DNA of 64,000 nucleotides, from the NCBI GenBank assembly GCA_964518135.1, contig CAZFEY010000001.1, forward strand, positions 2,856 through 66,855. Reading direction: 5' to 3'. The notes under the pieces are model-generated. The model was not told the origin of the DNA, searched no databases, and saw nothing but the letters and a program-made list of their open reading frames with translations. The DNA comes from an uncultured Candidatus Saccharibacteria bacterium (GTDB lineage: Bacteria; Patescibacteriota; Minisyncoccia; Minisyncoccales; 2-12-FULL-40-12). Below are positions 5,154-64,000 of this stretch, piece by piece. Every line of letters begins with the position of its first letter. Position 1 is the stretch's first letter. A program made the translations under genes and the position numbers.

Positions 5154-5546
5154 CTACTGGTAAGCATCGGCATTTTCGAAAAAAGAGATCTCTTGCTGTT
5201 TTTGATTATCGTCAAGCTCAATCGCAATAATATCAATTTGCCAAGGATTATCTAACGCAATTTTGTTTTGTATTAACCAGCACTCGGCGGCTTTTGCGAT
5301 TTTTTTTCTCTTTATCAAATCAACTCTATCTTCTGGAAAGAAAACATTTTCCCTGTTAGTAAAAGAGGTTTTTACCTCAACAAAATTAATGACATCATCT
5401 TTTTTACAGACGATGTCAATTTCCCCGGTTTGAGGACCGGCCAAAAAACCAACCTTAAAATTTTTATCTAAAATTTTATATCCCTTACCTTGAAGATAAT
5501 CCAAAGCAATTTTTTCGCCCAGAATACCAATTTCTTTTCCATTCAT
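5154..5546 (-). CDS. YraN/UPF0102 family endonuclease-like protein
   Basis: 'GEIDIVCKKDDVINFVEVKT' matches UPF0102 core (GE-D..VEVK); probable true start MNGKEIG (ORF as listed overlaps giant gene). Confidence 0.65.
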   Translation of the reverse strand: MNGKEIGILGEKIALDYLQGKGYKILDKNFKVGFLAGPQTGEIDIVCKKDDVINFVEVKTSFTNRENVFFPEDRVDLIKRKKIAKAAECWLIQNKIALDNPWQIDIIAIELDDNQKQQEISFFENADAYQ

Positions 5547-5553
5547 AACACAA

Positions 5554-8500
5554 CTAAATCGCGAATCTATTCTGAATGACTCCCGATTTAACATTCATGA
5601 CTTTCGAAGTAAAGATGTGGGAATAAGAGCCGTCGTCATTTTTCTTTTCGATCTTAAGGTAATATTTGCCTGGCGGAACAAGAATATAATATCTTCCATA
5701 TTGATTAGCGACTCTTTTTACCATCTCTTTGTCAACATCGGCATTAAATATTCTTAATATCGCAAATGACAAGGGAAGTCCGGTATCTTTTTCCGATAAA
5801 GTTCCAAAGGTTCTTGTTTTGATATTTAAAGATATAAGCACGCCCAAAAGCATATACAAAAGAACCACGATCAGGTTTGCGCGCTCGGGAGCCAAAAGAA
5901 CGCTTACTATTGCCGAGGCAAAACCAACAACAAATAAAATATCTGCCAACTGCCTAAAAGTAATTTCTGTTTGAGAATAAAGTTTCATCAAATTCTTTTG
6001 CTTTTTGGCAAATTCATTCCAGTCGAACTTTTCTCTATCTAACGGAATGTCTCTCGCGACAACGTCTCCTTTTTCACCCACCTCAACTTCGCCACCAAAA
6101 TAAAGATTACTATATATTTCATCGTTGCTTCTGCCGTAAAGTGCTTTTGATGGGAATTTATAGTGGGTTTTATTGGCTACCATGGTGTATTTACCAGGTT
6201 CTGCCAAAAATCCATACCGACCATCCAAATCAGTAATCGACGTGGTTACCTCCTCGCCTTTTTCGTTCTGTAACATTACATAGGCTGGGTCTAATGGCTG
6301 TTTTGTGATTGAGTCATAAACGGTACCCCAACCTTTGCTCTTACGCTTTAATCCAAACGCAATCATAAGCGATGACAGTAATCTTAGAAGTTGCAAGCCC
6401 CAATTAGCCGGTGAAATCGGTATAAACCCAATTAATCCCAACCCACTCACAATCAATCCAGTCATTGCAATTGCCTTGGCAGTATCCTCTGCTGCGGGAC
6501 TATTTAACCAGCCACGGACAATATCAATAATACCTTTCTGCTCTTCTTCCTCTTCTGGAACTGCTGGCACGCATCTCTCCTCGGTCCATTCTTCTATGGA
6601 AATATATTCTTGTTCGATCTCACACCATTGAGTACCCGGAGGAACACATCTGTCCACCGTCCACTCTTCTTCTGGCATATATCTTTGTTCAACTTCGCAC
6701 CATCTCGCTCCGTCGGTAACACATCTCCTTTCGGTCCAATCTTGTTCTGGTATATACTGCCTTTCTTTCATGCACCACTTAAGAATAGGAGTTATACACC
6801 TTCCTTCGGTCCACTGTTCTATCGGTATGTATTGTTTTTCCGCTCCGCACCATTTGGTGCCCGGGGGAGTACAACGTTCTTCTGTCCAATCTTGCTCTGG
6901 AATAAAATGCTGTTCAAACTCACACCACTTAGCGCCTTCGGGCACGCATCTCTCCTCGGTCCATTCGTCTTGAGGTATAAACCTTTGTTCGTCTTCGCAC
7001 CATACTGTTAATGGCGGAGGGACGCATCTATCAACGCTCCATTCTTCTTCGGGTATGAATTGCTGCTCGGCTTCGCACCAAAGAGTTCCGTCAGGCGCGC
7101 ATCTTTCCTCGGTCCATTCGTCTTGAGGTATAAATTGTTGTTCTTTCTCACACCATTGATTTACCGGCCCTCCACCACCTCCAGGGACATCACACCTTGC
7201 GCTTGTCCATTCTCCTTGAGGTATAAAAGCATTTTCTTTGACGCACCAGGTCATCACCGCAGCTGGGAACCAATTAATGTTATTGCCATTATCTACAAAA
7301 TGAACTGGATCAATCGGCAGAGCCGCTTGGTTAACCGAATTCCCAACGTTCACGAAATCAACATTCCAAGCAGCAGGATTAATATTCCATTGGTCAGCTC
7401 CGGCTCCTCCTGCTCTCTCAAGGTTAATATTGTTTCCAGCCGCTCCAGCAATTTCCCAACTAGCCGGGCTTGTAATTGTTTGAGTGGAGTCTGATTGGAA
7501 AGCCAAAGTTTTGCCCGGTGTCGTGCAGCTAAAATTCCAAAAAGTAGAGTTACCACTGATGGTTGAGGTTTGGGTCGCATCATTAAAGGTAACTGTGTTA
7601 TTGCTATGAGAAAATATTCCATTCTTAGTCCAATTACTACCCAAAGTGATATTTTTACCATCGGCATTAAGATTTGCGGCGGCATCTATTGTTAGACTGC
7701 CAGTTAAAGCATTGGCTCCGGTCAGATTTCCCACCGGAACATATGTTTCAGCTCCGGAAAACTGAATTGAATTATAGGTGGTGGTTGTAACATTAATATT
7801 TCCCGCAGCATTCGTTGCTGAATACTGAACAGTGGAATTAGTTCCAGGAGTCAAAGTGCCATTAACAGTTAAAACTGTTGCTACGGCTCCGGCATTGGCA
7901 AGGTTCAATATGTACCCATTAGAGGCGAGATCCAACGTATTGTTAGCATTAACGGTCATTATGTCCGCAGTCATTGAGGAAGCCAAGGTCAGCTCATTTC
8001 CTGCTCCTCCGCCAATAACTACTGCTCCAATATTTTGCTTAACCGCTGTGGAGTCGGTGTAGTTATTGTCTTCGACTCCATCAAAAGTTAAAGTTCCTCC
8101 TTTAGTGTAGGTAGTGCCTGCGTCTAAAGTAAAGTTGCCGGCATAATTCTGGCTCAAAGCATTGGTGTCAAAAGTACCAGCTGATTGTAAAAAATTTCCA
8201 TCAACATCTAAAGCATTGTTGGTTAATTGTAGGATTCCGGCTCCGGAGTGGGTTAGATGATTGAAAAGGAATCCCGCTCCTACTCCTCCGGAGTCCAGGG
8301 CTTGGGTGCCGGCGGCAGCGCTAAAAGTAACAAGACCCTCTCTTGGAGTAAATGTTCCATTATTATCCCAATTACCGGCCAGAGTAATATTATAATCACC
8401 ACCAAAAACAGCATCTAGGGTAGCGCCGTTATCAATGGTTAAGCTTCCCGTTAAAGCATTTGCGCCAGTATGATTACCTTCTAAAATATAAGTTTCAGCG

Positions 8501-11500
8501 CCAGAAAGTTGTAAGCTACTATAGGGCGTAATGGTAACGGTTATATTTATAGCGCCATTCACTCCTGAATATTGTACCGTAGAGGTGCCAGGATTAAGAG
8601 TCCCGGTTACTCTTAGTACGTGTGCGATTTCTGCAGGGTCAGCCCAAATACCACTAGATCCGCCTGCTAAATTTAAAGTATAGCTACCTACACCTAGATT
8701 TAAGGTAGTGCTAACATCTAAGGAATTCACGGTCATCGAAGAAGCCAATGTAATTTCCTTTCCAACGCCACCCCCAATAATAACCTCTCCGATATCTTGT
8801 TTTACAGCTGTTGAGTCCGTATAAATTGCCGTATCTGTTGCTCCATCAAAAGTTAGAGTTCCGCCTTTGGTATAAGTAGTGTCTGCATCAAGAGTAAAAC
8901 TGCCAGCGTAGTTTTGGTCTAAAGCGTTAGTATTAAAGGTACCTGCCTGAAGGCGAAAATTGCCATCCACATCAAGAGGACTGTTGGCAAGAGTTAACAT
9001 CCCGCCTCCTGTATAATCTATGGTTAGATTCCAAAAAGCGCTTGCTCCAGGGTCTAGGAGTGGAAAGGGCGGAGGAGCGCCGGGATAATCAAAAACAACT
9101 GTATTGTTGCCATGGGTGAAAATAGCTGAATTTGCCCAACCGCTACCACCACCAACATACATATCCTGCCCGTTAGCATTAAATATGCCTGCCGAATTAA
9201 TAAAACCACCATCTATGTCAACCGCATTCGTAATGAGTCTCAATGTTCCATCGCCAGAGTGAGTAAGACCATTAAAAGATTTGCCAGCGCCCACTCCTCC
9301 GGAATTCAAATCTTGAGTTCCAACTCCGGCATTAAAAGTAACAGTATTAGACCTTGGGGTAAATGTTCCGGCATTAGACCAATTACCAGCCAAAGTAATG
9401 TTGTAGTTTTGACCATCAACAGCGTCTAAGGTAGCGCCACTATCAATTGTTAAACTTCCAGTCAAAGCATTGCCGCCCGTAAGATTACCTAAAAGTTCAT
9501 AGGTTTCAGCTCCAGAAAACTGCAAAGAGTTATAAGTCGTAGTAGTAACCTCGATATTGTTGCCTACGATAACTCCGGAATATTTCACCGTGGAAGTACC
9601 CGGCGTAAGAGTACCTATTACGATTAGTGAATCCCCGACCCCATCCCCATGAACAGCAGCCGTAAGAACACCTTGTAAATCTAAGGTGTAGTTATTAGAA
9701 TTTAAATCTAAAACATTGTCTATGTTGATAGTCATCGTATCCACGGTCATACTGGATAGTAAAGTAAGCTGATTGTCTGGAGGGGCGGCGGCGGCGGACA
9801 ACAACCTAACCGTCCCTATGTTTTGTTTTGTGTCATTGGAATCAGTATAGGTTATCCCGAGACCATGATTAAAGGTAACTGTTCCGCCCTTAGTGTAAGT
9901 AGTGTTGGCTAAAAGCTCAACATCGCCAGAAAAAACTTGGCTCAATCCATTAGCATCGAAAGTTCCTCCTTGAAGCGAAAAAGTCCCATCTACATCTAAT
10001 AAGTTGGTGTCAAGTTGTTTAATTCCAGCGTTGCTTAAAGTAAGGTTATAAAAACTACTATTTGGACCGTTGTCTATGGTTTGAGTTCCAGCTGCGGCGT
10101 TGAAGGTAACTGTGCCACTTCCGGGAGTAAAAACCCAATTATTATCCCAATTGCCAGCTAAAGTAATTCCGTAGTTTTGAACGACATCAGCGCTCAAAGT
10201 TGAAACATTATCTATGGTTATATTTCCGGTTAAAGCGTTGGCGCCTGTTAAATTGCCCAATAATACATAAGTCTCGGCGCCAGAAACCTGAAGAGAATTG
10301 TAGGTGGTATTGGTAACTAGCATATTGCCCCCTCCAAAAACCGCTGAATACTTCACCGTGGAGGTTCCGGGAGTAAGGGTTCCGTCAACACGCAGCGAAT
10401 CCCTCTCGGCTGGATGCCCTGGCAGGGGCACTAAAAACACATCTTTTAAATCTAAAACATAACTATTCGAACCTAAATCGAGAGTGTTGTCGGCATCAAT
10501 CAACATTGTGTCCACGGTCATATTAGACGCAAGAGTAATCTTTTTCCCTGCTCCGCCACCGATAACAACGGTCCCAATATTTTGTGTCGCGGCCGTGGAA
10601 TCGGTATAAATCGCAGTATCTGTCGCTCCATCAAAGGTTAAAGCACCTCCTTTGGTATAACCAGTACCCAAATCCAAAGTAAAGCCACCTGCGTAATTTT
10701 GGTTTAGAGCGTTAGCGTTAAAGGTTCCATCCTGGAGACGGAAGTTGCCATCTACATCGAGATTATTGGTATCGAGAGCTATACTTCCACCTGCTCCGCT
10801 AAGATTTATGGTAAGATGCCAAAAAGAACTTGAACCGTTATTTAAGGTGTATACTGCGATTTCTGTACCATTGAATTCAACTGTGCTTGAACCGGGAGTA
10901 AAGGTACCGGAATTAGACCAGTTTCCTGAAAGAGTAGCAGTATAAGTTTCAGCGTTAAAATTTGCGCCGGCCTGGATAGTAACATCGTCAGAAATTAAGT
11001 TACCGCCCGGGGTATAAGTTTTATTCGTCCAGACAATAAAATCAACTCCCGCATCTAATGTTAGATCGCTACCAGCCACCGAAAAAGGAACTGCTAGCCC
11101 GCCTTCGCCAGTAGAAAAATCTGCATTTGTTATTGGCCCCGCTGTTTCATGTCTGGCAGTAACAGTATCAAGGCTGGAAACTGTAAAATCAGCTATGTTT
11201 GTGGTAGTCGTTGCAACAGTAACTATAGCCACATCTTCGCCAGCGCCGCCCGAGTAAAAAGTAATAATATCGCCATCGCTAAAATAATGCTGCATTGTAA
11301 AGGTAATGTTGGCGCCTGCCAATATATCGGATGTTGCTGGCACCAAGCTAGTGGGTAAACCCCCATTTATCGCTATTGTCGTGTCATTTAAATTATCTCC
11401 GCTATTATTAAATACAGTAATGTCTATCTGAAAAAGCCAATTGGTATTATTGTCAGAGTTAGTTGAGGTAATAGCCGTAACGGTTCCACCATTAATACTG

Positions 11501-12726
11501 TTAGAATCTTTAACGTCTACGTATGTAACCGAGACAGATGCGGCAGCGACAACATCTACCTCCCATTGACTTCCTGGCGTAGTACTCCTTAAGACAATTT
11601 GGTTGGCGCCGGCACCTCCAGTTAAAAGAAGATTGGTAATAGTCTGGGTTGTACCATCGGTGAAGGTAATTTGTTTGGCAGCGGTTATAGAAGTAAAGTT
11701 TTCGAATGTCGTAGAGCCAGAGATTGTTGACACCTTGCCACTGTCGTTAAAAGTCACCGAAGGATTTGCTCCATTAAAAGAACCACTCGTAAAAGCCCAA
11801 CTGCCAGATAATGCTATGGTACCGCCTACATTATATGTGGCGCCATTCAAAGTAAAATTCCCTGAAATAGTTAGTACGCTGGGATCGTTGAAGATCCCGC
11901 TAGTCAAATCAACATTACCAGTAACGCTCAATCTGTTGCCGAATACTTCTAAGACATTGTAAGTTCCGCCGGATTGGGTAAAATTACCACCGACAATAAG
12001 GTTTACAGCCACACTCAATCCTCCTCCAGATAAATCAACATTGCCAGTGGTCTCTGTATTCCCAGTACTTGTAAATGTTCCTCCTGCCACACTTAACGAA
12101 CTAGCCGTGATAGCATTACCCCCATCAGAAAAAGCAGCGATGCTGTTGGCACCAGCCATCGCGAAAGCTCCCATACCCGGTATTGCCACCGTCAAAGATA
12201 TTGAGCCGTCATATCCGTCTGTGGCACCCGCGTCGCCCGTAATAGTTAATGATTCTCCAGCTGATCCCCAAGTGCCGAGATTGTCAATGGTGACATTTTT
12301 ATCATTGGTGCTGTTAAAAGTTACTGTGTCTCCAGCGGCTGGGGCGCCATCTGGCAACCAGTTAAGATCATCTGACCAGTTTTCTGTTAATCCTTCACCG
12401 TCCCAAACTTTTGCTTCGGCCTTGACTAAAAAAGGAATAGAGGAAAACAATACCAGAATCAACAAAAATAATGTTCCAAATAAAGAAAGCCAGTGGGTAA
12501 TCTGGGCGTAAGGATTCAGATGCCAACGGTAATACGCAACTGATTTTCGTAATAAGTATCTATGCAAAGGAGCCAACTGCGGAATAGTGGTTTTTTTGGC
12601 AGAGTATGGAATCAGAAAAAGCCATTCGTTGAGCTCTTGGACTTTTTTTGAACGTTCCCTTTTCTCTTTCTCCATTTTAGCGATTCGCCTTTCTTCTTTT
12701 GTTTGAAAAATCCGCCCAAAGGCCAT
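5554..12726 (-). CDS. giant (2390 aa) membrane-anchored surface protein: N-terminal signal-anchor, long parallel beta-helix/autotransporter-like repeat region, 9x 25-aa Cys-pair repeats, C-terminal TM helices with two carboxypeptidase-regulatory-like beta-sandwich domains
   Basis: Repeated 'GNLTGANALTGSLTIDN...NITLAGNW.N.GTFTP...TVTFNA..GTQ' units; tandem WCE.EQ.FIP..EWTEERC.P repeats; 'GTVYDSITKQPLDPAYVMLQNEKGEEVTTSITDLDGRYGF...GKYTMV' CarboxypepD_reg-like; several hydrophobic helices near C-terminus. Confidence 0.8.
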   Translation of the reverse strand: MAFGRIFQTKEERRIAKMEKEKRERSKKVQELNEWLFLIPYSAKKTTIPQLAPLHRYLLRKSVAYYRWHLNPYAQITHWLSLFGTLFLLILVLFSSIPFLVKAEAKVWDGEGLTENWSDDLNWLPDGAPAAGDTVTFNSTNDKNVTIDNLGTWGSAGESLTITGDAGATDGYDGSISLTVAIPGMGAFAMAGANSIAAFSDGGNAITASSLSVAGGTFTSTGNTETTGNVDLSGGGLSVAVNLIVGGNFTQSGGTYNVLEVFGNRLSVTGNVDLTSGIFNDPSVLTISGNFTLNGATYNVGGTIALSGSWAFTSGSFNGANPSVTFNDSGKVSTISGSTTFENFTSITAAKQITFTDGTTQTITNLLLTGGAGANQIVLRSTTPGSQWEVDVVAAASVSVTYVDVKDSNSINGGTVTAITSTNSDNNTNWLFQIDITVFNNSGDNLNDTTIAINGGLPTSLVPATSDILAGANITFTMQHYFSDGDIITFYSGGAGEDVAIVTVATTTTNIADFTVSSLDTVTARHETAGPITNADFSTGEGGLAVPFSVAGSDLTLDAGVDFIVWTNKTYTPGGNLISDDVTIQAGANFNAETYTATLSGNWSNSGTFTPGSSTVEFNGTEIAVYTLNNGSSSFWHLTINLSGAGGSIALDTNNLDVDGNFRLQDGTFNANALNQNYAGGFTLDLGTGYTKGGALTFDGATDTAIYTDSTAATQNIGTVVIGGGAGKKITLASNMTVDTMLIDADNTLDLGSNSYVLDLKDVFLVPLPGHPAERDSLRVDGTLTPGTSTVKYSAVFGGGNMLVTNTTYNSLQVSGAETYVLLGNLTGANALTGNITIDNVSTLSADVVQNYGITLAGNWDNNWVFTPGSGTVTFNAAAGTQTIDNGPNSSFYNLTLSNAGIKQLDTNLLDVDGTFSLQGGTFDANGLSQVFSGDVELLANTTYTKGGTVTFNHGLGITYTDSNDTKQNIGTVRLLSAAAAPPDNQLTLLSSMTVDTMTINIDNVLDLNSNNYTLDLQGVLTAAVHGDGVGDSLIVIGTLTPGTSTVKYSGVIVGNNIEVTTTTYNSLQFSGAETYELLGNLTGGNALTGSLTIDSGATLDAVDGQNYNITLAGNWSNAGTFTPRSNTVTFNAGVGTQDLNSGGVGAGKSFNGLTHSGDGTLRLITNAVDIDGGFINSAGIFNANGQDMYVGGGSGWANSAIFTHGNNTVVFDYPGAPPPFPLLDPGASAFWNLTIDYTGGGMLTLANSPLDVDGNFRLQAGTFNTNALDQNYAGSFTLDADTTYTKGGTLTFDGATDTAIYTDSTAVKQDIGEVIIGGGVGKEITLASSMTVNSLDVSTTLNLGVGSYTLNLAGGSSGIWADPAEIAHVLRVTGTLNPGTSTVQYSGVNGAINITVTITPYSSLQLSGAETYILEGNHTGANALTGSLTIDNGATLDAVFGGDYNITLAGNWDNNGTFTPREGLVTFSAAAGTQALDSGGVGAGFLFNHLTHSGAGILQLTNNALDVDGNFLQSAGTFDTNALSQNYAGNFTLDAGTTYTKGGTLTFDGVEDNNYTDSTAVKQNIGAVVIGGGAGNELTLASSMTADIMTVNANNTLDLASNGYILNLANAGAVATVLTVNGTLTPGTNSTVQYSATNAAGNINVTTTTYNSIQFSGAETYVPVGNLTGANALTGSLTIDAAANLNADGKNITLGSNWTKNGIFSHSNNTVTFNDATQTSTISGNSTFWNFSCTTPGKTLAFQSDSTQTITSPASWEIAGAAGNNINLERAGGAGADQWNINPAAWNVDFVNVGNSVNQAALPIDPVHFVDNGNNINWFPAAVMTWCVKENAFIPQGEWTSARCDVPGGGGGPVNQWCEKEQQFIPQDEWTEERCAPDGTLWCEAEQQFIPEEEWSVDRCVPPPLTVWCEDEQRFIPQDEWTEERCVPEGAKWCEFEQHFIPEQDWTEERCTPPGTKWCGAEKQYIPIEQWTEGRCITPILKWCMKERQYIPEQDWTERRCVTDGARWCEVEQRYMPEEEWTVDRCVPPGTQWCEIEQEYISIEEWTEERCVPAVPEEEEEQKGIIDIVRGWLNSPAAEDTAKAIAMTGLIVSGLGLIGFIPISPANWGLQLLRLLSSLMIAFGLKRKSKGWGTVYDSITKQPLDPAYVMLQNEKGEEVTTSITDLDGRYGFLAEPGKYTMVANKTHYKFPSKALYGRSNDEIYSNLYFGGEVEVGEKGDVVARDIPLDREKFDWNEFAKKQKNLMKLYSQTEITFRQLADILFVVGFASAIVSVLLAPERANLIVVLLYMLLGVLISLNIKTRTFGTLSEKDTGLPLSFAILRIFNADVDKEMVKRVANQYGRYYILVPPGKYYLKIEKKNDDGSYSHIFTSKVMNVKSGVIQNRFAI
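6540..7290. repeat. about 9 diverged tandem about 75-bp repeats (encode 25-aa WCE...ERCVP units on minus strand)
   Basis: Periodic recurrence in protein and in spurious plus-strand ORFs (repeated '...LSSVHSS...'). Confidence 0.7.
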
Positions 12727-12882
12727 TTTAAAGATTATTAATTAATACCTATCTAAAGATTTGACCACGAACACAAAACAAATCTCAATCTCGAAACTTT
12801 ATCTATATTATAAAATAATAACACAACGCAAGATAAAAAAAACGGCATTTCTGCCGTTCTTAAAGTCGCGCTCTTGGCAAGA

Positions 12883-14289: not shown

Positions 14290-14385
14290 CGACAGTTCTG
14301 GTGGACCCAGGCGGACTCGAACCGCCGTTTCCGCAATGCGAATGCGACGTCTTACCGCTGGACCATGGGCCCGCCAGAACTGTCG
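14290..14385. repeat. perfect 12-bp inverted repeat (cgacagttctgg / ccagaactgtcg) bracketing tRNA-Ala
   Basis: Arms at 14290-14301 and 14374-14385; arms include the CCA end; would form 12-bp leader/trailer stem around the pre-tRNA. Confidence 0.7.
14299..14372 (-). tRNA. tRNA-Ala (anticodon CGC), CCA encoded
   Basis: RC: GGGCCCA-TG-...-TCGCA-TTCGCAT-TGCGG-AAAC-GGCGG-TTCGAGT-CCGCC-TGGGTCC-A-CCA; G3:U70 alanine identity pair present. Confidence 0.85.
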
Positions 14386-14398
14386 AGGATCCTCGTAT

Positions 14399-14647
14399 TT
14401 ATAAATTTTTTGAAATTAATCCTTCGATCGCACGTCTCTTTTTCCAAGATTTAATCTGCAACTCTCTTTCTTTGGCATCTTTTAATAATCTATACTCTTC
14501 TTTATGCACAATTTCCCAGGGAATATATCTTTTCGTAGATTTAACTAGGCCTTTGTTATGTAAGCTAATTCTTATTTCCAAATCTTCACAACTACCGATA
14601 TAAAATGAATTATTTTTCTCAGATTTTAAAATGTATGTATAAAACAT
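14399..14647 (-). CDS. small GIY-YIG nuclease-domain protein (82 aa)
   Basis: 'MFYTYILKSEKNNSFYIGSCEDLEIRISLHNKG' GIY-YIG motif; paralog of 80..352. Confidence 0.75.
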   Translation of the reverse strand: MFYTYILKSEKNNSFYIGSCEDLEIRISLHNKGLVKSTKRYIPWEIVHKEEYRLLKDAKERELQIKSWKKRRAIEGLISKNL

Positions 14648-14715
14648 TTTAAAAAATTTATAAATCGGGACGAATGCGCCGTTCTGCCATTTAACTACAG
14701 GCCCTACTATATATA

Positions 14716-14812
14716 TGTCGGGGTGCCGGGAATTCCCGCCTGCCTATCACTATCGCTTTAGGCGATGGCGGGCAGGGAACCCGAATTACTGACTTTCACC
14801 TACCGTCGCCTT
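14716..14812 (-). other. tRNA-like conserved element (acceptor-like stem + T-arm-like CGGG-TTCCCTG-CCCG); uninterrupted copy of the element that hosts tRNA-Arg at 16795-16945
   Basis: Shares 'GGGTTCCCTGCCCGCCAT...AGGCAGGCGGG' with 16821-16931; contains 'GGTAGGTGAAAGT' similar to GIY-YIG cassette inverted repeat; the spurious ORFs beginning 'MAGREP' are its translation. Confidence 0.35.
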
Positions 14813-14820
14813 ATTTTGTC

Positions 14821-14893
14821 GGGGTACCCAGATTCGAACTGGGGTCACACGAACCCGAATCGTGTATACTACCACTGTACTATACCCCGTATC
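14821..14893 (-). tRNA. tRNA-Pro (anticodon CGG), no encoded CCA
   Basis: RC: CGGGGTA-TA-GTAC..GTAT-A-CACGA-TTCGGGT-TCGTG-TGAC-CCCAG-TTCGAAT-CTGGG-TACCCCG-A; fully Watson-Crick acceptor, U8, G37. Confidence 0.8.
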
Positions 14894-14894
14894 A

Positions 14895-15160
14895 GGCTTA
14901 TGGCGGACGAGGCCGAAGCCAGCGTAATACCGTTATACCACACCCCGAAAAACTCCCCCAGACAAGATAATATGGATTTTGGGACAATCCGCAACCTTCA
15001 ACAAAACAAATCCTCAAGAGCAAGGGATTTTATTGCTTGGGGAACATCCGCAGGCAAATTGCATGGTTCCGCGAAGCGGAAATTTGCCGAGGAACCGAGC
15101 TTGTCCCGCGCTGGCGGGACAGGGCGTATCCCCAAATATAAAATCCTTGAAGCTCCCCCC
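14895..15160. ncRNA. candidate structured non-coding RNA (GC-rich, nested hairpins and a pseudoknot), family unknown
   Basis: GGCAAATT...AATTTGCC 8-bp inverted repeat enclosing CCGC-GAAG-GCGG hairpin; loop GGTTCC pairs with downstream GGAACC; GTCCCGC-GCTG-GCGGGAC hairpin; GC about 48%; no convincing ORF. Confidence 0.3.
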
Positions 15161-16692
15161 TAACTCACCCAATACTTTTTCTTCGTCATCTCATCCTTTT
15201 TTACTATCAATTGTTCTTTGTCTTTCCTAGATTTTTTAACTAAAGACGTTAATTCTTTATCGGACAACTTACCTAGCTTTTCAGTTTCTTTTTTTAAAAA
15301 CGCTTTTTTGTTGTTTTTTGGATCTTCCAAGATAATCCCCAATAAAATATCCAAAATTTGTCCAACTTTCGGTCCTGGTTTCATTTTCAGAATTTTCATA
15401 ACATCATTCCCTGAAACCTTCAGCATTTTTGCCGAAATCGGGTCTTGCGAGACTTTATCAATGATATATTTAAGATGTCTTAATTTGTATGGTTCGGCCT
15501 TGGGAACGCCAGAACCAATTCTATCTGCCATTCTTAATTGCAAAAGTTCTTCCATATTTTCTATTCCTACCTGACGAACCAGCCTGCGCACAGACGACTC
15601 TCCAACCTCGTCCACATTATAATAAAATAGGTGATAACGAACTAGTTTTGTTATTTTCTCAATGTCTTTATTGGAAAATCTAAGACGATCTAGAATCTGA
15701 CGAGCCATTTTGGCCCCGACAATTTCGTGCCCATAAAAAGTTGAATCTGACCCTTCGCCATGCTTAACTCTTGGCTTTGCAATATCGTGCAACAAAGAGG
15801 CTATTCTTACGTTCTTGTTAAAATTTTTCTTTGCGGCAAAGTCGAGCGCCCTCATATTATGCTCATAACAAGAGTATATATGATGTTTATTCTGACCAAT
15901 ATTATAACCCTCTTCAAGTTCTGGCAAGATATGTTTCAAGAGCGAAAGTTCTCTTAACAACTCTATCCCGCCCATTGCACTTTCTGACATTATAATTTTC
16001 GAAAACTCGTCTCTTATTCTTTCTTGCGAAATATACCTAATCAAATCAGAGTTTTCCTTAATGGCTTTGGCCGTTTCATTTTCTATGTTCCAACCCATTG
16101 TGGTCGCAAAACGAACAGCCCTCATCATTCTCAAAGCGTCTTCTGAAAACCTTTCTCTGGGATTTCCAACGGCTCTAATCAGCTTTTGTTGTAAATCTTC
16201 CTGCCCATTAAAAAGATCTACGACCTTAAAACCTAAATCTTGAAGCTTAAAATCTGAATCTTTTTTTGTCGGTGCTTTAAGCTTTAAGCTTCGCGCTTCA
16301 AGGCCTAACGCTATTGCGTTTACTGTAAAATCGCGCCTAGCTAAATCTTCTTCAAGATTTTTAGCAAAACCGATGTTGTCTGGATGGCGCTTGTCCGTGT
16401 ATTTCGCTTCTTTTCGGAAGGTAGTAATTTCAACTTCTTTCAGTGAAACTTTTTTGCTGCCAGTTTGAACTGTTACCGTAAGAAATTTATTTTCACAAAA
16501 ACTATCTGGGAATATCTTTTGTATCTCTTCTGGCTTAGCATCGGTAGTTATGTCCCAATCCTCGGGATCTGCTCCTCGTAAAATATCCCTAACACACCCT
16601 CCTACAACATAGGCACCATATCCGCTTTTATGAAGTTTTTGGATAATATTCTTTATTTCCTTCGGTATTTCTATTTTTACCATTAAAATCAT
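15160..16692 (-). CDS. cca: CCA-adding enzyme / poly(A) polymerase family nucleotidyltransferase with HD domain
   Basis: 'GAYVVGGCVRDILRG...DWDITT' Pol-beta NT motif, 'RDFTVNAIA', HD domain 'LLHDIAKP'. Confidence 0.85.
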   Translation of the reverse strand: MILMVKIEIPKEIKNIIQKLHKSGYGAYVVGGCVRDILRGADPEDWDITTDAKPEEIQKIFPDSFCENKFLTVTVQTGSKKVSLKEVEITTFRKEAKYTDKRHPDNIGFAKNLEEDLARRDFTVNAIALGLEARSLKLKAPTKKDSDFKLQDLGFKVVDLFNGQEDLQQKLIRAVGNPRERFSEDALRMMRAVRFATTMGWNIENETAKAIKENSDLIRYISQERIRDEFSKIIMSESAMGGIELLRELSLLKHILPELEEGYNIGQNKHHIYSCYEHNMRALDFAAKKNFNKNVRIASLLHDIAKPRVKHGEGSDSTFYGHEIVGAKMARQILDRLRFSNKDIEKITKLVRYHLFYYNVDEVGESSVRRLVRQVGIENMEELLQLRMADRIGSGVPKAEPYKLRHLKYIIDKVSQDPISAKMLKVSGNDVMKILKMKPGPKVGQILDILLGIILEDPKNNKKAFLKKETEKLGKLSDKELTSLVKKSRKDKEQLIVKKDEMTKKKYWVS

Positions 16693-16781
16693 TCTATCTT
16701 AAAAATTGATTTTTTCAATCTTTTGAGTTAGGCTTAAAAACAGCATAACGGTTAATATTTCCTAGCAAAATTATCTTATGC

Positions 16782-16950
16782 CCCCGTGGCAAGGCGCCTC
16801 GCTTCGGACGAGAAAATTGAGGGTTCCCTGCCCGCCATATTTGCCTCCATAGTGAAACGGATATCATACATGGCTTCGGACCATGAGTTCCGGGTTCGAA
16901 TCCTGGTGGAGGTACGGCAAGGCAGGCGGGGAGTCCTTTTGGGGGTACGA
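16782..16950 (+). other. degenerate tRNA-Arg-like outer element (acceptor GCCCCCG/TGGGGGT, anticodon-loop CTTCGGA) interrupted by intact tRNA-Arg
   Basis: Outer sequence has anticodon stem-loop CTCG-CTTCGGA-CGAG identical in loop to inner tRNA; halves 'GGGTTCCCTGCCCGCCAT' and 'AGGCAGGCGGG' are contiguous in the 14716-14812 copy. Confidence 0.3.
16843..16914 (+). tRNA. tRNA-Arg (anticodon TCG), no encoded CCA
   Basis: GCCTCCA-TA-GTGA..TCAT-A-CATGG-CTTCGGA-CCATG-AGTT-CCGGG-TTCGAAT-CCTGG-TGGAGGT-A; G1:U72 wobble. Confidence 0.8.
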
Positions 16951-17035
16951 TTATTTATTTTTGAGCGTAGCGAGAAAACATTTATTTTTATCGTAAAATG
17001 ATATATAATCCGAGAAGAATAATCCATATTGCAAG

Positions 17036-17455
17036 ATGAAAAAGATAATCCTAAATATAATTTTATTGTCTTTTATAATCGGCCTACCCTACATTGCTAA
17101 CGCACAACCAGTTGGCTTAGTGCCTTGCGGTAACATTGGCGAACCACCCTGTCAACTCTGCCACATATTTATTCTCTTTAATAACATTATCTCATTCTTG
17201 CTTGTTCCTGGTAATCCCTTTGGGGGATTCCCTGTGGTACTTGCTATCGCTGGACTAATGATATTATGGTCAGGATTCTTATATATAATGAGCTTTGGGG
17301 ACCCTAAGAACCTAATCAAATCAAGAGAAATACTAAAAGCAACGGGCCTTGGATTGTTAATAGTTTATGGCGCTTGGGCTGCTGTTAACACATTGTCATG
17401 GTTCGGCATTATTCCGAATAACTGGTTTACGATTAACTGCCCTATTATTCCTTAA
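17036..17455 (+). CDS. secreted VirB2/TrbC-like pilin-like protein (stand-alone, 139 aa)
   Basis: Sec signal peptide, then hydrophobic helices separated by short polar loop 'SFGDPKNLIKSREILKATG'; paralogous to N-termini of 27978.. and 33753.. proteins. Confidence 0.45.
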   Translation: MKKIILNIILLSFIIGLPYIANAQPVGLVPCGNIGEPPCQLCHIFILFNNIISFLLVPGNPFGGFPVVLAIAGLMILWSGFLYIMSFGDPKNLIKSREILKATGLGLLIVYGAWAAVNTLSWFGIIPNNWFTINCPIIP

Positions 17456-17462
17456 AAAACAA

Positions 17463-17496
17463 CGCGCCCGTAGCTCAATTGGCCCCGCACCCTCCA
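17463..17496 (+). pseudogene. tRNA 5' fragment (acceptor GCGCCCG + D-arm GCTC-AATTGG) directly abutting tRNA-Lys
   Basis: Canonical acceptor/D-arm start without remainder; partial complementary strand 'TAGGCGC' found 3' of tRNA-Lys (17590-17597). Confidence 0.35.
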
Positions 17497-17570
17497 TGCC
17501 CCCATAGCTTAATTGGTAAAGCAGGAACCTCTTAAGTTCAAGAGTCCAGGTTCGAGCCCTGGTGGGGGCA
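17497..17570 (+). tRNA. tRNA-Lys (anticodon CTT), no encoded CCA
   Basis: GCCCCCA-TA-GCTT-AATTGGTA-AAGC-A-GGAAC-CTCTTAA-GTTCA-AGAGT-CCAGG-TTCGAGC-CCTGG-TGGGGGC-A. Confidence 0.8.
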
Positions 17571-17655
17571 TAGAGCGTACGGGGCAAACCTAGGCGCAAT
17601 ACAATAATCAAGTCGAGATAATTAAGGTATTACTGTTAAACAACATACATTATAT

Positions 17656-20736: not shown

Positions 20737-23616
20737 ATGGTACAAGGCCAACAACAAACGGATAACCAAGATATTCTTAAGAAGGCCGAGATAAAAACAA
20801 TGCAGGCTGATATTTTGGCTGCCCAAAAAATATCTGACAAGAACGACCTAGCTACTCGAGAAAGAGAAATGGCAAGAAAAATAACAGAACAGAAAAGGGC
20901 CGAGGAAGAACGTAAAAAGATTGCCGCTCAAACCATAAAGAAAACTTTACCGACGCAAACTAAAAAAATTGACGAAAAAAAAGTGATCAATGATGGAGAA
21001 GAAGCTATTAAAAAATTTGAGGCGGATAGGAGGAAAGAAGAATCAGATGTTATAGCGAAAACAAACGTAAAAATCCAAGAAGAACAAAGAAAAAAAGAAA
21101 TAGCCGAACGGAAGGCCGCTGAAGAAAGGCGTCTCGAAGAAGAAAAAAAACAGAGAAATGCAGAAAAAGAAAAATTAAAACAAATAGAAGAAGCCCGAAA
21201 AAAAGAGATCGTAGCAATACGACAAAGAGAAGAAGCGATACTCGCGGCCAAAGAAGCAAGACGCATCAGGGAAAGGGAAATACTGCAATTAGAAGAAGAA
21301 AAAATATTATTAGAAAAAGGGCTTCAAGATATTTTGAGCAGAAGAGTTCCGCTAGAAACAGAAATAAACCAGCTTGCCAAGCGAGAATCTCAATTGCAGG
21401 AAAATTTGAATGAAGTCTCGAAAAGAGAAGATGAGGTTGAAAGAGAAGTAAAAACAATTGAAGCTAAGGAAAAATCGGCCGACACAGAAGAGAAGAAGAA
21501 ACTTGAACAACAAAGATGGGAAATTGAAGAGAAGAGAAGGAGAGTAGAGAAAGAAAGGTGGGAATGGGAGGCAGAAATCGGTAAAGTAAAGGACCAAAAA
21601 AGAGAGGTTAGTTTAAGGTATAATAGACTTTTGACTAACGAAGAGGAAATCCTAGAGAGAAAAAGGGCAATCGCTGACAAACAAGAAGAAATTAAAATAG
21701 AAAATGAGAAAATAGAATTAGAAAAAGAATTACAAAGGTTAAAAGAGAAAAAATCTCCCCTAGAGATAGAGATTAATGCCATTTTGGAGAGAGAATCTCA
21801 ACTCCAAGCGAAACTAGACAGCGTTTCGAGTAAAGAGAATGACATTGAAAGAGAAATAAGCTCAATTGAAGACAGAGAAAAATCTACTGGCGTGACCGAG
21901 GGGAAAAAAGAGCTTGAACAACAAAGATGGGAGATTGAAGAGAAAAGAAGGGGAGTGGAAAAAGAGAGGTGGGAATGGGAGGCAGAAATCGGAAAAGTAA
22001 AGGACGACCTAAAAAGAATAGAAAATGAGTATCAAAAAATTCTCTTAAGAGAAAAGGAATTATTATTAAAACTACACCCAGAACAAATAACTAATTTATC
22101 TAACCGATTGGAAGAGGAAGAGAAAGCTACAATACCTACAAAAACAACACCTCCCTTACAAAAAAGAGAAAGGGCAGATGTTAAAATTTCCGAAAACAAA
22201 CCCGTAAAACCAGAACCCCAGAACAAGGAAGAAAACCTTGCCGACTCGACTATTTCTCAAAAGACAGCCGCGCCAGAAAAAACGCAACTGGACAACCATC
22301 AAGAGAAACAACATCTAGACGAGACAATAAATAGACAAATGGAAGTGCTAAAAGAGATCGAACGTCTTAAGGCAGAAACAGAAAAAGAAAAACAACAGAC
22401 AAGAAACGAAGGAGAGGTAGCGCAAACACAGGTAAATATAACCGTTGAATCAGCCCACGAGCAAGAGTCTGGGCAGACAACAACCATCCAATCCCAACCA
22501 GAACCGGCACTAGATCAGGAAGAGATAACCACGCATCAAGTACCACCCCAACCAATACCCATTAAACCGCAGAAATTCTGGATGAAAGAAGAGGCTAAAG
22601 CATTTGAAACGCAAACCAGAGATCCTCAAAAAGAAAGCGAGATTAAAAAGCGACTTGATGAAATCCAACAACAAGAAGAAATAGAAAGAAAAGAATTTTT
22701 AGAAAGGATTCAAGGAAGTGAATCGAAAAAATCGACCATTGGAAGAATTAATAAAGAAAATATTCCTATCAAGCCTCAACCAGAAACACCTGAAATTATT
22801 ACATCTATAGCGCCTCGGCCCTCTGCTTTTGGTAAATTCTGGTCAAGAATTTTAGCAACAATGATAGTTGTCGCCATCTTCGCTGGTGTGTTTTGGTTAA
22901 TTTACTGGACATTCTTTATCCGAAAAGCGCAAATCAAAACAACCTGGTGTGAAAACGAAAAAGTCCAGATACCGCAATCTGAATTCTCTCCAGAAAGATG
23001 CGTTCCGCCACCCATCGTGATTCCTGAAATTCGCGTTCCGCCAGATTTAATTAGTATTGCAACCAGAAAGGAAATTGTTGTTCCGGAAAAAGGAGATCCA
23101 TTAAAGGAGCTGGCAAGATTTTTAGAGGAAAATGGCGAAGAACTAGAACAAAATAAGCCTACCAGGATAGTAATAAAGAGCCTCGATAAAAAGGAAGTGC
23201 TTGGTTTTGAGGATTTTTTCAATCTTTTTAAGGCAACTGTGCCAGATGGTTTTTATTCTAAAATCAACAAAGACTTTAATCTTCTTATCTACCCACAGAA
23301 AGAAGGACGAAGATGGGGCATAATAAGCCAAATTACAACCCAAGAAGGCGTTGATGTTGTTGGCGAAACAGTAACTATGCTTCGGCTTTGGGAAGACAAA
23401 ATGGATCAAAATCTCCAAACTCTTTTTGTATTTTTTGGAAAAACAGAACCAGCCATAAATGATTTCTTCACCAGAGTGCCGTATGGAAACATAAACATAC
23501 GTTGCCAGACTTTCAGCAAAGAGGATTTTGGCGATTGCTACGCTATAAAAGGAAACAGTTTCGTTTTAACCACCTCCTTAGAAAGTATAAAAAAAATATT
23601 AGACGAAATAAAATAA
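20737..23616 (+). CDS. K/E-rich coiled-coil membrane protein (959 aa) with internal about 136-aa duplication, one TM helix, and C-terminal domain bearing the WCENE...ERCVPPP Cys-pair motif
   Basis: Heptad-like charged repeats; 'QQRWEIEEKRR.VEKERWEWEAEIGKVKD' present twice; TM 'ILATMIVVAIFAGVFWLIYWTFFI' followed by motif shared with giant protein. Confidence 0.65.
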   Translation: MVQGQQQTDNQDILKKAEIKTMQADILAAQKISDKNDLATREREMARKITEQKRAEEERKKIAAQTIKKTLPTQTKKIDEKKVINDGEEAIKKFEADRRKEESDVIAKTNVKIQEEQRKKEIAERKAAEERRLEEEKKQRNAEKEKLKQIEEARKKEIVAIRQREEAILAAKEARRIREREILQLEEEKILLEKGLQDILSRRVPLETEINQLAKRESQLQENLNEVSKREDEVEREVKTIEAKEKSADTEEKKKLEQQRWEIEEKRRRVEKERWEWEAEIGKVKDQKREVSLRYNRLLTNEEEILERKRAIADKQEEIKIENEKIELEKELQRLKEKKSPLEIEINAILERESQLQAKLDSVSSKENDIEREISSIEDREKSTGVTEGKKELEQQRWEIEEKRRGVEKERWEWEAEIGKVKDDLKRIENEYQKILLREKELLLKLHPEQITNLSNRLEEEEKATIPTKTTPPLQKRERADVKISENKPVKPEPQNKEENLADSTISQKTAAPEKTQLDNHQEKQHLDETINRQMEVLKEIERLKAETEKEKQQTRNEGEVAQTQVNITVESAHEQESGQTTTIQSQPEPALDQEEITTHQVPPQPIPIKPQKFWMKEEAKAFETQTRDPQKESEIKKRLDEIQQQEEIERKEFLERIQGSESKKSTIGRINKENIPIKPQPETPEIITSIAPRPSAFGKFWSRILATMIVVAIFAGVFWLIYWTFFIRKAQIKTTWCENEKVQIPQSEFSPERCVPPPIVIPEIRVPPDLISIATRKEIVVPEKGDPLKELARFLEENGEELEQNKPTRIVIKSLDKKEVLGFEDFFNLFKATVPDGFYSKINKDFNLLIYPQKEGRRWGIISQITTQEGVDVVGETVTMLRLWEDKMDQNLQTLFVFFGKTEPAINDFFTRVPYGNINIRCQTFSKEDFGDCYAIKGNSFVLTTSLESIKKILDEIK

Positions 23617-30533: not shown

Positions 30534-30592
30534 AAAATCTTAGCGGAAATATTTTAATAACCCCACTTTGAGTTGTTGATAAAATATTATTT

Positions 30593-33500: not shown

Positions 33501-33766
33501 AACTACCAACCGTTCCTCTCTCTGGTCTTAAATATGAAAAAAGTGTACCAATTGAGCTCCCCGGATTCCAATATCCTTCTCCACAAATTAATTTCGGGAG
33601 TCCTTTACCAAATGCAACTGCCTGTGTTAGCCAACCGCCGACTGGGAACGCTTGCGGCGCAGCTCCTGGCGACATGCAAACCGACCTTACTGGTTCTGAT
33701 GGCATACAAGAGCTCAGCCAAAAACTTAACGATGCTTCTAAAAAGATAAGGGATGTATTACAATAA
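30593..33766 (+). CDS. large (1057 aa) N-terminally membrane-anchored Cys-rich extracellular protein
   Basis: Single N-terminal TM; shares 'ECSC...C...GC...PC' module with 27978.. protein; many Pro/Cys; no catalytic motif recognised. Confidence 0.55.
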   Translation: MNKKSIYNVFKKTSGLTIPLFALILATIAILLVATKSAAQIPSLFLPNFPSRLMYLSDAIANTSQELISPNQDMIDLVNECSCEFSQSQCKQIITNGQPSGCVTIGAIGKPCSLVSPGEETEPTIRSLQRKSRNLALDLSYLRKLLIKEKEAGLERQLETLRKDPSAGIDDAQDLRDAINIILGTSADYADGALSKVITKAEANLERPKQCSTNACTPHCGPGDSFSLSEYMCLPALTFELGEVKPTVINFHAGIEIEDWELGKIEITNVKLNLPESIDIPELPGLKMPSFSISVPEIKIDCPTKKQEISFQTPQPSLPKTPTMKLSCPTYNTTASYQYPSDLQPGSEKYREFEWFLETFSWLSGICMDAVWGDGDLPDSQKMQYPDKFNQSLTTCFDPFNVANKLIQECNEQYANYHPSNPPSGPPPVYPACEYWVNKQPAEFGSITEEHCFKFFEGFADPSGTQGWEDIDGNPATNDPKTFDPGTKDKIYDYLEQKYGITIDDEPQDQCRDKLDPLPTLIDSCNKLRELHPQKQAIEFPDQCKILPIFYNLPDYIPPHQIASPEVLELFAQSQLLSGQQMNDLPSKSISGCPSIGAPSIPKIPLSKYSIIIPDIKLPTFKLGPFFRIKLPSLIFEDLIFEDIELCNLDDCQFKFPNLNFEAPTLTIPQIDVPSIKLESFNVPGIPNDIGKGIEISISPMEFQPFDFDFSQLINLNSLVSPEFQTPDISLPKPKLTFGFEGLDIDFTSLLSGLFDFNLPPNPGLACLPEFWNIDGIPIAFDFPDYIFSWPAFPDIPEIPGCADAKKFCKDINGSIQKITEQAGEIQEVVNGTIQTEIQGVLNMFKNEIENQLTGAIESKLNDIATEIKKEIYNWIQSNAPPSTSLPSAPIPGVFPVADGLSCQGLPPLTIDLKDILGDLYINTIELEDYLPPGLNLEKISIPWPDELKNLDLSTINNPLCSDCKGLSYELPTVPLSGLKYEKSVPIELPGFQYPSPQINFGSPLPNATACVSQPPTGNACGAAPGDMQTDLTGSDGIQELSQKLNDASKKIRDVLQ

Positions 33767-33776
33767 CATAACATCA

Positions 33777-63810: not shown

Positions 63811-63835
63811 AACTATTTATTTAAAAAATTTTTAT

Positions 63836-63960
63836 AGTGGAGGCGGAGGGGTTGAACCCTCGTCCGAAAATTAATTCAGAAATAAATCTACAAACTTAGC
63901 CAGGTTTGTTTTGGAACGAAAAGTATAAAATCTGGCAAAACCCTTTCGTTCTTTGCCTTT
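63836..63960 (-). promoter_or_regulatory. structured 5' leader of infC-rpmI-rplT operon (8-bp hairpin GAACGAAA/TTTCGTTC; tRNA-like T-arm + ...CCTCCA 3' end); possible L20-type autoregulatory leader
   Basis: RC contains GAGGG-TTCAAC-CCCTC T-arm-like hairpin adjacent to CGCCTCCA; no matching 5' acceptor strand, so not a complete tRNA. Confidence 0.3.
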
Positions 63961-64000
63961 GTTTTTGATAGCTCTCCAGGCACTAGAGTTATCTATCTCG

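Follow-up and report, generated by a model that had tools for sequence, protein, structure and literature searches.

A candidate giant adhesin with a conserved C-terminal membrane module in Patescibacteria

A 2390-residue protein, referred to here as the giant, is encoded in a 64,000-nucleotide stretch of DNA from an uncultured Candidatus Saccharibacteria bacterium (GTDB phylum Patescibacteriota; assembly GCA_964518135.1, contig CAZFEY010000001.1). This whole stretch is termed the window. The gene for this predicted surface protein is located at 5554-12726 on the (-) strand, and consists of 2390 codons, starting with ATG, and a stop codon. All positions given below for parts of the giant are on this strand. 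The giant is probably an adhesin-like fibre, which is exported by the Sec pathway and retained in the membrane of the cell itself by a conserved anchor, and a probability of roughly 0.7 is assigned to this reading. The original prediction, made from the DNA sequence, described the giant as a mosaic of an N-terminal tail, one N-terminal transmembrane (TM) segment, about 1700 residues of beta-helix-like repeats, nine Cys-pair repeats, and C-terminal helices combined with two beta-sandwiches, and every one of these parts is found. The C-terminal module of ~325 residues is best read as a conserved, lineage-specific, general-purpose anchor that carries unrelated ectodomains. No description of this module is found in the literature. 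What would be new is a surface adhesin whose polytopic anchor is specific to the lineage and has not been described.

Judged from sequence comparisons, the giant is the product of a genuine conserved gene and is neither a chance open reading frame (ORF) nor an assembly artefact, because four public contigs (for example, contig Ga0209210_1000762 of the Joint Genome Institute (JGI) metagenome 3300025015) encode a protein identical to it and because a full-length orthologue, P0324 (2327 residues, 64% identity), has a matching architecture from end to end. When proteins are clustered at 90% identity, the giant falls in a cluster whose representative is KKP93787.1, annotated as a 'hypothetical protein' from a Parcubacteria group bacterium. 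The window also encodes a NusA protein with exactly the sequence of KKP93784.1, from Parcubacteria group bacterium GW2011_GWA1_36_12, which points to an ultrasmall groundwater bacterium of the Parcubacteria/Paceibacteria type (Patescibacteria).

Results

A family of proteins with a constant C-terminal module

The last 325 residues of the giant match 228 proteins with 40-55% identity, E values of 1e-97 to 1e-77 and a coverage of 80-100%. These proteins are named only 'hypothetical' or 'carboxypeptidase-like regulatory domain-containing'. The signature motifs of the module are PWG.VYDS.TKQPLDPAYV, TDLDGRYGF, KTNY.FPS, LYFG, NIPLD and FDWNEF, and all invariant columns of the family are kept in the giant. 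When 1.84 billion cluster representatives (clusters of 50% identity) are searched with a profile of the module, 5271 of them match at E<=1e-3, 3629 at 1e-10 and 2127 at 1e-30. The species genomes of GTDB contain 446 module loci, for 80 of which the taxon, the protein length and the neighbourhood were compiled. The titles of these 80 loci that name a taxon refer to Patescibacteria (Paceibacterota, Nomura-, Taylor- and Staskawiczbacteria, Minisyncoccia), and the sole exception is a 1.6-kilobase contig labelled Gammaproteobacteria. The module reaches the stop codon at most of these loci, with no residues after the match, and is followed by up to 132 residues at a few of them. The complete proteins are 267-2458 residues long, with a median of ~630 residues, and those in the representative set are up to 3040 residues long.

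The regions preceding the module are unrelated to one another. They include RCC1 propellers (P0255), BNR/sortilin and DUF285 (P0245), six LamG domains (P0267), a Gly-rich beta-helix with fn3-like domains (P0188 and L022), GLUG (L018 and L019) and cohesin (P0016), and precomputed domain matches add fn3, TIG and cadherin to these ectodomains. A hydrophobic segment of the Sec type is present at the N-terminus of ~85-90% of the family members. Some genomes encode at least two copies of the module, which are in some cases arranged in tandem. The original prediction regarded a membrane-embedded C-terminal module as unusual for a surface adhesin. In this lineage, it is the rule instead, because a large family carries such a module behind hypervariable ectodomains.

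The giant fits this unnamed family of Patescibacteria, other members of which are A2995_00135 (Ca. Nomurabacteria) and A2541_01370 (Ca. Taylorbacteria), and in which KKP93787.1 represents the giant's own cluster. It shares with them the 325-residue module in the order helix-helix-sandwich-hairpin-sandwich-stop, its module aligns over the full length, and the module is located at the C-terminus after an N-terminal signal segment and an ectodomain. Typical members are ~600 residues long and have small ectodomains, whereas the giant is encoded at another locus and has a beta-helix of ~2000 residues. At 33 of the 80 loci, the gene for the module protein is directly preceded on the same strand by a gene for a 212-residue M50 site-2-protease-like protein with an HEFAHG motif, and rpsL-rpsG-fusA are located downstream. 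Examples of the M50-type gene are found at 6471-7109 of L073 and 9239-9664 of L050. The median length of these 'core' members is 616 residues. All members of at least 1400 residues, including the giant, lie outside this neighbourhood. On comparative grounds, the giant is a large paralogue, not the core copy, of a family with a constant anchor and a variable ectodomain, because the core neighbourhood (M50, rpsL-rpsG-fusA) is absent around its gene.

Structure of the C-terminal module

The module was modelled by AlphaFold2 (AF2) for residues 2059-2390 with an alignment of 121 sequences, and the predicted local distance difference test score (pLDDT) of the model is 84.2. The model contains four helices (residues 2077-2099, 2106-2123, 2252-2278 and 2282-2299) and two beta-sandwiches (residues 2134-2231 and 2308-2389). 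The pLDDT is below 50 for helix 1, 67-88 for helix 2, and above 90 for the sandwiches and helices 3 and 4, with lower values for the linker before helix 3. The C-terminal hydrophobic segments are thus predicted to be helices, as the original prediction had assumed, and not buried beta-strands.

Residues 2059-2105 (6412-6552) comprise an acidic linker, a short helix and the hydrophobic helix 1 (residues 2086-2105). This is the least conserved part of the module. A conserved motif, P.G...TK...T.G, precedes helix 1, which is itself rich in Gly, Ala, Ser and Thr and poorly conserved. Residues 2106-2128 (6343-6411) form helix 2, which contains a conserved Arg residue and ends, according to the alignment, in a basic KRKSK cluster. 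Residues 2129-2251 (5974-6342) form sandwich 1, of the transthyretin/CarboxypepD_reg type, followed by a helix with the sequence FDWNEFAKK. Residues 2252-2305 (5812-5973) form a tight helical hairpin of helices 3 and 4, and residues 2306-2390 (5557-5811) form sandwich 2, which runs to the stop codon. When the giant is compared with its orthologue P0324, sandwich 1 is the most conserved region (86% identity), while helix 1 and its linker show the lowest identity within the module (47%).

Both sandwiches have the seven-stranded transthyretin-type fold, as judged from the AF2 model and Foldseek. Foldseek matches them to carboxypeptidase D (1qmu and 5aq0), transthyretins and CnaB domains with a probability of 1.0 over ~85-120 columns, and pilins and the B-repeats of SdrD are also among the closest structures. 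The match of the giant itself to CarbopepD_reg_2 (PF13715) scores 24.7 bits, which is below the gathering score of 32.2, while close homologues pass the threshold of PF13620. The fold proposed earlier for these domains is supported by prediction, and the family match of the giant itself remains below threshold. A Foldseek search with the whole module gives only single-domain matches with a TMq of at most 0.21, and no solved analogue. Scans of the whole giant against Pfam and NCBIfam give no model that covers the whole module.

Structure of the ectodomain

Residues 106-1826 are rich in Thr, Gly, Asn and Ala, and ~1700 residues of the giant are predicted to form a beta-solenoid. This region begins with the first Thr/Gly/Asn-rich beta-strand repeats (residues 106-284, 11875-12411), which are 53% identical to the orthologue with an indel of 40 residues. 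They are followed by the first copy of a cap domain (residues 285-431, 11434-11874) and an insert (residues 432-552, 11071-11433), which is the least conserved region, with 39% identity in the orthologue. Self-comparison, AF2 and Foldseek define residues 553-1677 (7696-11070) as a beta-solenoid of ~255-residue units. When chunks of the protein are compared with one another, this unit is repeated ~4.5 times with 50-60% identity between copies, and the copies start near residues 603, 858, 1114 (a partial copy), 1197 and 1451. Self-comparison also identifies the second cap domain (residues 1678-1826, 7249-7695). The cap domain is ~140 residues long and occurs twice in the giant, at residues 285-431 and 1678-1820, with 34-37% identity between the two copies. 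The motif of the first copy is TF.NF...K..TF..GTTQTI..L.LTG..G..I.LRS..PG..W......V.YVDVKDSN....NS..NTNW. No Pfam model matches the cap domain of the giant. Across relatives, the motif is TF.NF...GK.LTF..G.TQT....L.L.G..G..I.LRS...G..W.I......V.YVDVKDS......NS.N.GNN.NW, and the cap domain recurs at the C-terminal end of the Paceibacteria prepilin-type protein P0125, within P0140, and in beta-strand-repeat proteins of Omnitrophota.

The AF2 model of residues 553-1070, built with an alignment of 39 rows, has a pLDDT of 86.9 and a predicted template modelling (pTM) score of 0.86, and contains only strands of 3-5 residues. Nearly all of the 50 neighbours found for this model in the PDB by Foldseek are beta-helix or beta-solenoid proteins, including IgA1 protease, EspP, Hbp, Ag43, HMW1, EtpA, a PL6 lyase and RsaA. 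None of these neighbours reaches E<=1e-3, the best E value being 0.019 and the template modelling score at most 0.35. The description 'parallel beta-helix-like' is a plausible one for the modelled giant at the level of a predicted fold class. The earlier comparison with autotransporters is acceptable only in this sense, because neither a translocator barrel, nor a two-partner secretion (TPS) domain, nor a PATR (PF12951) repeat is found by Pfam. In the giant, no match at E<=1 is obtained for PATR, pertactin, haemagglutinin-type or other beta-helix repeats of Pfam, and a search of the PDB sequences with the whole giant gives no match. Proteins related in sequence to the repeat unit and to the cap domain occur in Bacteroidia, Calditrichia and Omnitrophota, and one of these relatives is a pseudopilin of Paceibacteria.

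A Pfam match to deoxyhypusine synthase at 8700-8880 (residues ~1284-1346), which at 28.9 bits is just above the gathering score of 27, is rejected as a low-complexity or repeat artefact and is almost certainly a false positive. It sits on the repeat motif IG.V.IGGG.GK..TLAS and recurs in two repeats, and the matches to the dhys models of NCBIfam are weak. The precomputed annotation of JGI also contains this match, marked 'faint'.

The solenoid is followed by repeats with the sequence WCExEQxFIPxxEWTEERC (residues 1827-2058, 6553-7248). These Cys-pair repeats are exactly nine in number, with a C-x16-C spacing and a period of ~25 residues. The orthologue P0324 also contains nine of them, with 74% identity, and P0113 (560 residues) contains three directly before its module, as in the giant. 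These repeats are presumed to form a stalk stapled by disulfide bonds. Elsewhere in the window, a single Cys-pair mini-repeat (TWCENEKVQIPQSEFSPERC) is found in a 959-residue ORF at 20737-23616 on the (+) strand. The N-terminal half of this ORF is long, rich in Glu and Lys and coiled-coil-like, and the mini-repeat is located immediately after its one TM segment and before an orphan C-terminal domain, for which no Pfam match is found. In this genome, the mini-repeat seems to be an element that can be reused close to the membrane, because a copy is also found after the TM segment of this ORF.

N-terminal region of the giant

Residues 1-82 (12481-12726) form a basic tail, which is predicted to be cytoplasmic and contains the conserved motif PQLAPLHRYLL.KS..YYRWHLNPYAQ..HW. 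The tail is 70% identical in the orthologue P0324. The possibility that this tail results from a mis-called start was considered and rejected; it is conserved in P0121, P0122 and P0324. Residues 83-105 (12412-12480) form a hydrophobic segment, either a signal anchor or a long signal peptide. The insertion free energy (dG) of the N-terminal segment is -3.6. Its core (residues 83-101) has a Kyte-Doolittle value of 2.48 and is followed by AEA, and the segment ends in a signal-peptidase-like motif, P-x-x-V-K-A-E-A. An uncleaved segment would leave the fibre tethered at its two ends.

Topology of the anchor and alternative readings

The turn between helices 3 and 4 consists of only three residues in the AF2 model, and therefore the two sandwiches should share one side of the membrane. 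Whether they are inside or outside is decided by helices 1 and 2, according to whether both of these span the membrane. The mean number of Lys and Arg residues per family member is ~0.01 in the loop between helices 1 and 2 and 0.18 in the loop between helices 3 and 4, whereas it is ~5 after helix 2, 6.7 before helix 3 and ~4.5 after helix 4. The bias of these residues between the two faces of the module is ~15 to 1. The positive-inside rule is established, and the charge pattern of the module conforms to it. Among 275 members, the number of Cys residues in the ectodomain is even in 183 and odd in 21; an even number is expected of disulfide-bonded exported domains. Sandwich 2 contains exactly one Cys residue in 203 of the 275 members. 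The hydrophobicities of helices 1 and 2 on the Hessa scale are anticorrelated (Spearman -0.34, p 7e-8, n=243, uncorrected for phylogeny). At dG<=1.5, only helix 1 is hydrophobic in 60 of these 243 members, only helix 2 in 54, and both in 3. Clear TM segments are formed by helices 3 and 4, for which the median dG in the family is +0.5 and +0.2, respectively. Taken together, the charge pattern, the Cys residues and the anticorrelated hydrophobicity favour a single membrane crossing by the pair of helices 1 and 2 and a cytoplasmic position for both sandwiches. Such an anchor, with three net crossings made by one of these two helices and the hairpin of helices 3 and 4, is fairly likely. The original prediction counted about four TM helices. 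This number agrees with the four helices of the AF2 model, but is probably an overcount of the membrane crossings, because the statistics of the family point rather to three. Modules that stand alone and start at helix 2 (P0010 and L020) are not used as evidence for the topology, because L020 follows a 613-residue ORF of the family and looks like part of a split gene, and because P0010 is located on a short contig.

Several observations weigh against this picture of the giant and its anchor. The topology is derived from simple scales and counts, with no correction for relatedness among the sequences. Of the first two helices of the giant itself, the first is clearly hydrophobic (dG +1.3) and the second is marginal (+3.3). 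In the giant, AF2 confidently packs helix 2 with helices 3 and 4, which bears on which of helices 1 and 2 crosses, and sandwich 2 lacks the single Cys residue of the family. Domains of the CarboxypepD_reg type are usually extracytoplasmic, and the long loop containing sandwich 1 could be translocated by Sec despite the charges that flank it. As to the role, no known binding or catalytic domain is detected in the ectodomain of the giant by Pfam, NCBIfam or PDB sequence searches, and adhesion is deduced from the fold class and the family. Alternatively, the protein may have the same role but cross the membrane four times, with helices 1-2 and 3-4 both forming hairpins and the sandwiches located outside as a pedestal, or as a platform that docks the stalk to the cell wall or S-layer. 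AF2 gives four helices of membrane-spanning length, helices 1 and 2 of the giant are both hydrophobic enough to be marginal TM segments, and sandwiches of the CarboxypepD_reg/CnaB type are typical of extracytoplasmic proteins, the nearest structures being pilins, SdrD B-repeats and carboxypeptidase D. However, this arrangement would leave each protein with ~15 Lys and Arg residues outside the membrane and ~1 inside, would expose sandwiches with one unpaired Cys residue next to ectodomains with even numbers of Cys residues in the same proteins, and would require helices 1 and 2 to cross together, although both are hydrophobic in only the three members mentioned above. Four crossings are for these reasons somewhat unlikely.

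Readings in which the module or the ectodomain has a different role are less probable. The module, or helix 1 within it, might be a processing or sorting device, such that an intramembrane protease, for example one like the M50 site-2 protease (S2P), cuts helix 1 and sheds or transfers the ectodomain. The M50-type gene directly upstream at 33 of the 80 loci, and the features of helix 1 (low conservation, many small residues and the P.G...TK...T.G motif before it), which resemble those of sorting signals and S2P substrates, are consistent with this possibility. The M50 adjacency could reflect a functional link of this kind, intramembrane proteolysis of helix 1, or just synteny. It occurs within an rpsL-rpsG-fusA block, which may be plain synteny, and no M50 neighbour is present at the giant (none is found in the window) or at any other member of at least 1400 residues. 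A conserved module of 300 residues also far exceeds what a sorting signal needs, and this role is quite unlikely. It is also hard to regard the beta-helix as an enzyme or as a scaffold for toxin delivery (a polysaccharide lyase or hydrolase, or a stick like those of TpsA and contact-dependent inhibition (CDI) proteins) instead of a passive adhesin. PL6 lyases and GH110 are among the weak Foldseek neighbours, and some sequence relatives carry G8 domains (PF10162). Nevertheless, no catalytic family, TPS domain or toxin domain is detected in the giant by Pfam, NCBIfam or PDB sequence searches, its C-terminus is a membrane anchor rather than a toxin, and its repeats are nearly identical in length without an obvious active-site insertion. 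An enzymatic or toxin-delivering role is accordingly improbable. The original prediction offered two interpretations of the C-terminal block. That of a second membrane anchor is a fair description of it. That of insertion into the membrane of a partner or host draws only on hydrophobic helices that are located a long way from the N-terminal anchor, and finds no support. A Sec-type signal is present in most members, the charge asymmetry of the module is of the inner-membrane type, and the module is the part of the giant that is best conserved in its orthologue, all of which fits insertion into the membrane of the cell itself. In the majority of the members studied, the module occupies the C-terminus or is close to it. 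It is also common to proteins of 270-600 residues, whose ectodomains are too small to bridge two cells. When a Sec substrate is followed by a polytopic segment, this segment should stop transfer and enter the producer's own membrane through Sec/YidC. Insertion into a host membrane is highly improbable on these grounds.

The gene and its neighbours

A terminator-like hairpin with a T-run, identified by reading the sequence and by a scan, marks the end of the gene upstream of the giant gene at 12838-12861 on the (-) strand. A TATAAT box follows it at ~12807-12812, which was spotted by eye and was not listed by the automated scan. These elements suggest that the giant gene probably starts its own transcript. 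The gene downstream, at 5154-5546 on the (-) strand, encodes YraN/UPF0102 and starts 7 nucleotides after the stop codon of the giant gene according to the start called by JGI. The start of its longest ORF (5546-5594) overlaps the 3' end of the giant gene by 41 nucleotides, and the internal Met codon, which gives 130 residues and the 7-nucleotide gap, is preferred by both the JGI call and the family profile. YraN is probably co-transcribed with the giant, but is not thought to be functionally linked to it. A promoter scan finds a promoter with a 12/12 match to the consensus at 5151-5122, beyond YraN.

The neighbours of the giant gene are all housekeeping genes, which encode RNase Y, ClpP, NusA, YraN, Vut_1, tRNAs, the CCA-adding enzyme and PNPase, and give no clue to its function. 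Neither a second copy of the module nor further beta-helix genes are found in the 64-kilobase window. The G+C content of the giant gene (6001-12000) is 0.43-0.45, as compared with 0.39 in its flanks. This difference could be explained by the Gly/Thr/Ala-rich composition of the protein, and a foreign origin is not required. Four tRNA genes (Ala-CGC, Pro-CGG, Arg-TCG and Lys-CTT) are interspersed with the gene for the CCA-adding enzyme at 14299-17571, and the 3' part of a tmRNA gene is located at the end of the window (63835-64000). Three consecutive genes on the (+) strand at 27978-35465 encode large Cys-rich orphan proteins of 851, 1057 and 570 residues. In the first and third of these, a hydrophobic pilin-like segment, which ends in ...TINPQL, comes after a signal peptide, and the first shows a weak match to NlpC/P60 at its C-terminus. 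These three genes may form a surface, cell-wall-remodelling or type IV secretion system (T4SS)-like cluster typical of CPR (Candidate Phyla Radiation) genomes.

Discussion

Patescibacteria are believed to spend their lives in attachment to other microbes. To our knowledge, little is known of the molecules of this contact apart from type IV pili. The ectodomain of the giant is most likely an adhesin for the surface of a host or partner, by analogy, because of its fold class, the lectin- and propeller-type ectodomains of its family, and the lifestyle ascribed to the phylum. A sequence of events compatible with the results can be proposed. The N-terminal hydrophobic segment would direct the chain to the Sec translocon, and ~2000 residues, once exported, would adopt the extracellular form of a long beta-solenoid, for which a right-handed form is proposed rather than read from the model. 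At ~18 coils per 518 residues and 4.8 Å per coil, the fibre would be ~25-30 nm long. The two cap domains would flank the main region of ~255-residue repeats, and the solenoid would stand on a stalk of nine small disulfide-stapled repeats. The C-terminal module of ~325 residues would then stop translocation and stay in the cytoplasmic membrane of the cell itself. Outside, the ectodomain may attach to the surface of a host or partner cell or to a polymer, while the conserved sandwiches at the cytoplasmic face may self-associate or bind a conserved intracellular partner.

The predicted long beta-solenoid of the giant resembles, as a fold class, the surface fibres formed by the passengers of type V secretion systems (IgA1 protease, EspP, Hbp and Ag43, and the TpsA proteins HMW1 and EtpA). 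Its unusually long extension before the signal segment may also be comparable to the extended signal peptide region (ESPR) of large autotransporters. However, Pfam and NCBIfam match neither the C-terminal 12-strand barrel of autotransporters nor the N-terminal TPS domain in the giant, and its C-terminus consists of helices and sandwiches, so that its anchor would be helical and located in the cytoplasmic membrane. The relatives of the giant carry labels of Patescibacteria, which are not known to have an outer membrane. The wall-anchored adhesins of Gram-positive bacteria, namely MSCRAMMs (microbial surface components recognizing adhesive matrix molecules) such as SdrD, and CnaB pilins, follow the same logic of a signal, a variable binding region, a repetitive stalk and a constant C-terminal anchor, and the sandwiches of the giant structurally resemble their CnaB domains and SdrD B-repeats. 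They differ in the anchor, which in the giant is a polytopic module of ~325 residues with probably cytoplasmic sandwiches. No LPXTG motif is found before helix 1 of the giant, which is followed by ~285 residues, and sortases were not searched for. The beta-strand-repeat giants of Omnitrophota exceed 30,000 residues, contain SecA-like and peptidase domains and many TM segments, and have also been proposed, together with giants of other ultrasmall bacteria, to serve in attachment (bioRxiv 10.1101/2023.11.21.568195). The giant described here differs from them in lacking SecA-like and peptidase domains, many TM segments and such a size.

The arrangement of the module invites a more speculative proposal, which we advance only tentatively. 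The module may be a Paceibacteria-specific device for transmembrane coupling, in which variable host-binding ectodomains are wired through a three-helix bundle to conserved cytoplasmic transthyretin-like domains that bind a conserved intracellular partner. It would provide episymbiotic ultrasmall bacteria with an integrin-like outside-in link for signalling, clustering or mechanical tethering, possibly regulated by the neighbouring M50 protease.

For the giant gene alone, the outcome is more modest, since it represents one large paralogue of the family. The family as a whole, with at least ~2000 clusters at 50% identity, is a catalogue of candidate host-recognition proteins for Parcubacteria/Paceibacteria. 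One constant membrane module that carries interchangeable binding domains is a defined and testable module, and, if the sandwiches are indeed cytoplasmic, it would offer a handle on how contact at the surface is coupled to the interior of the cell.

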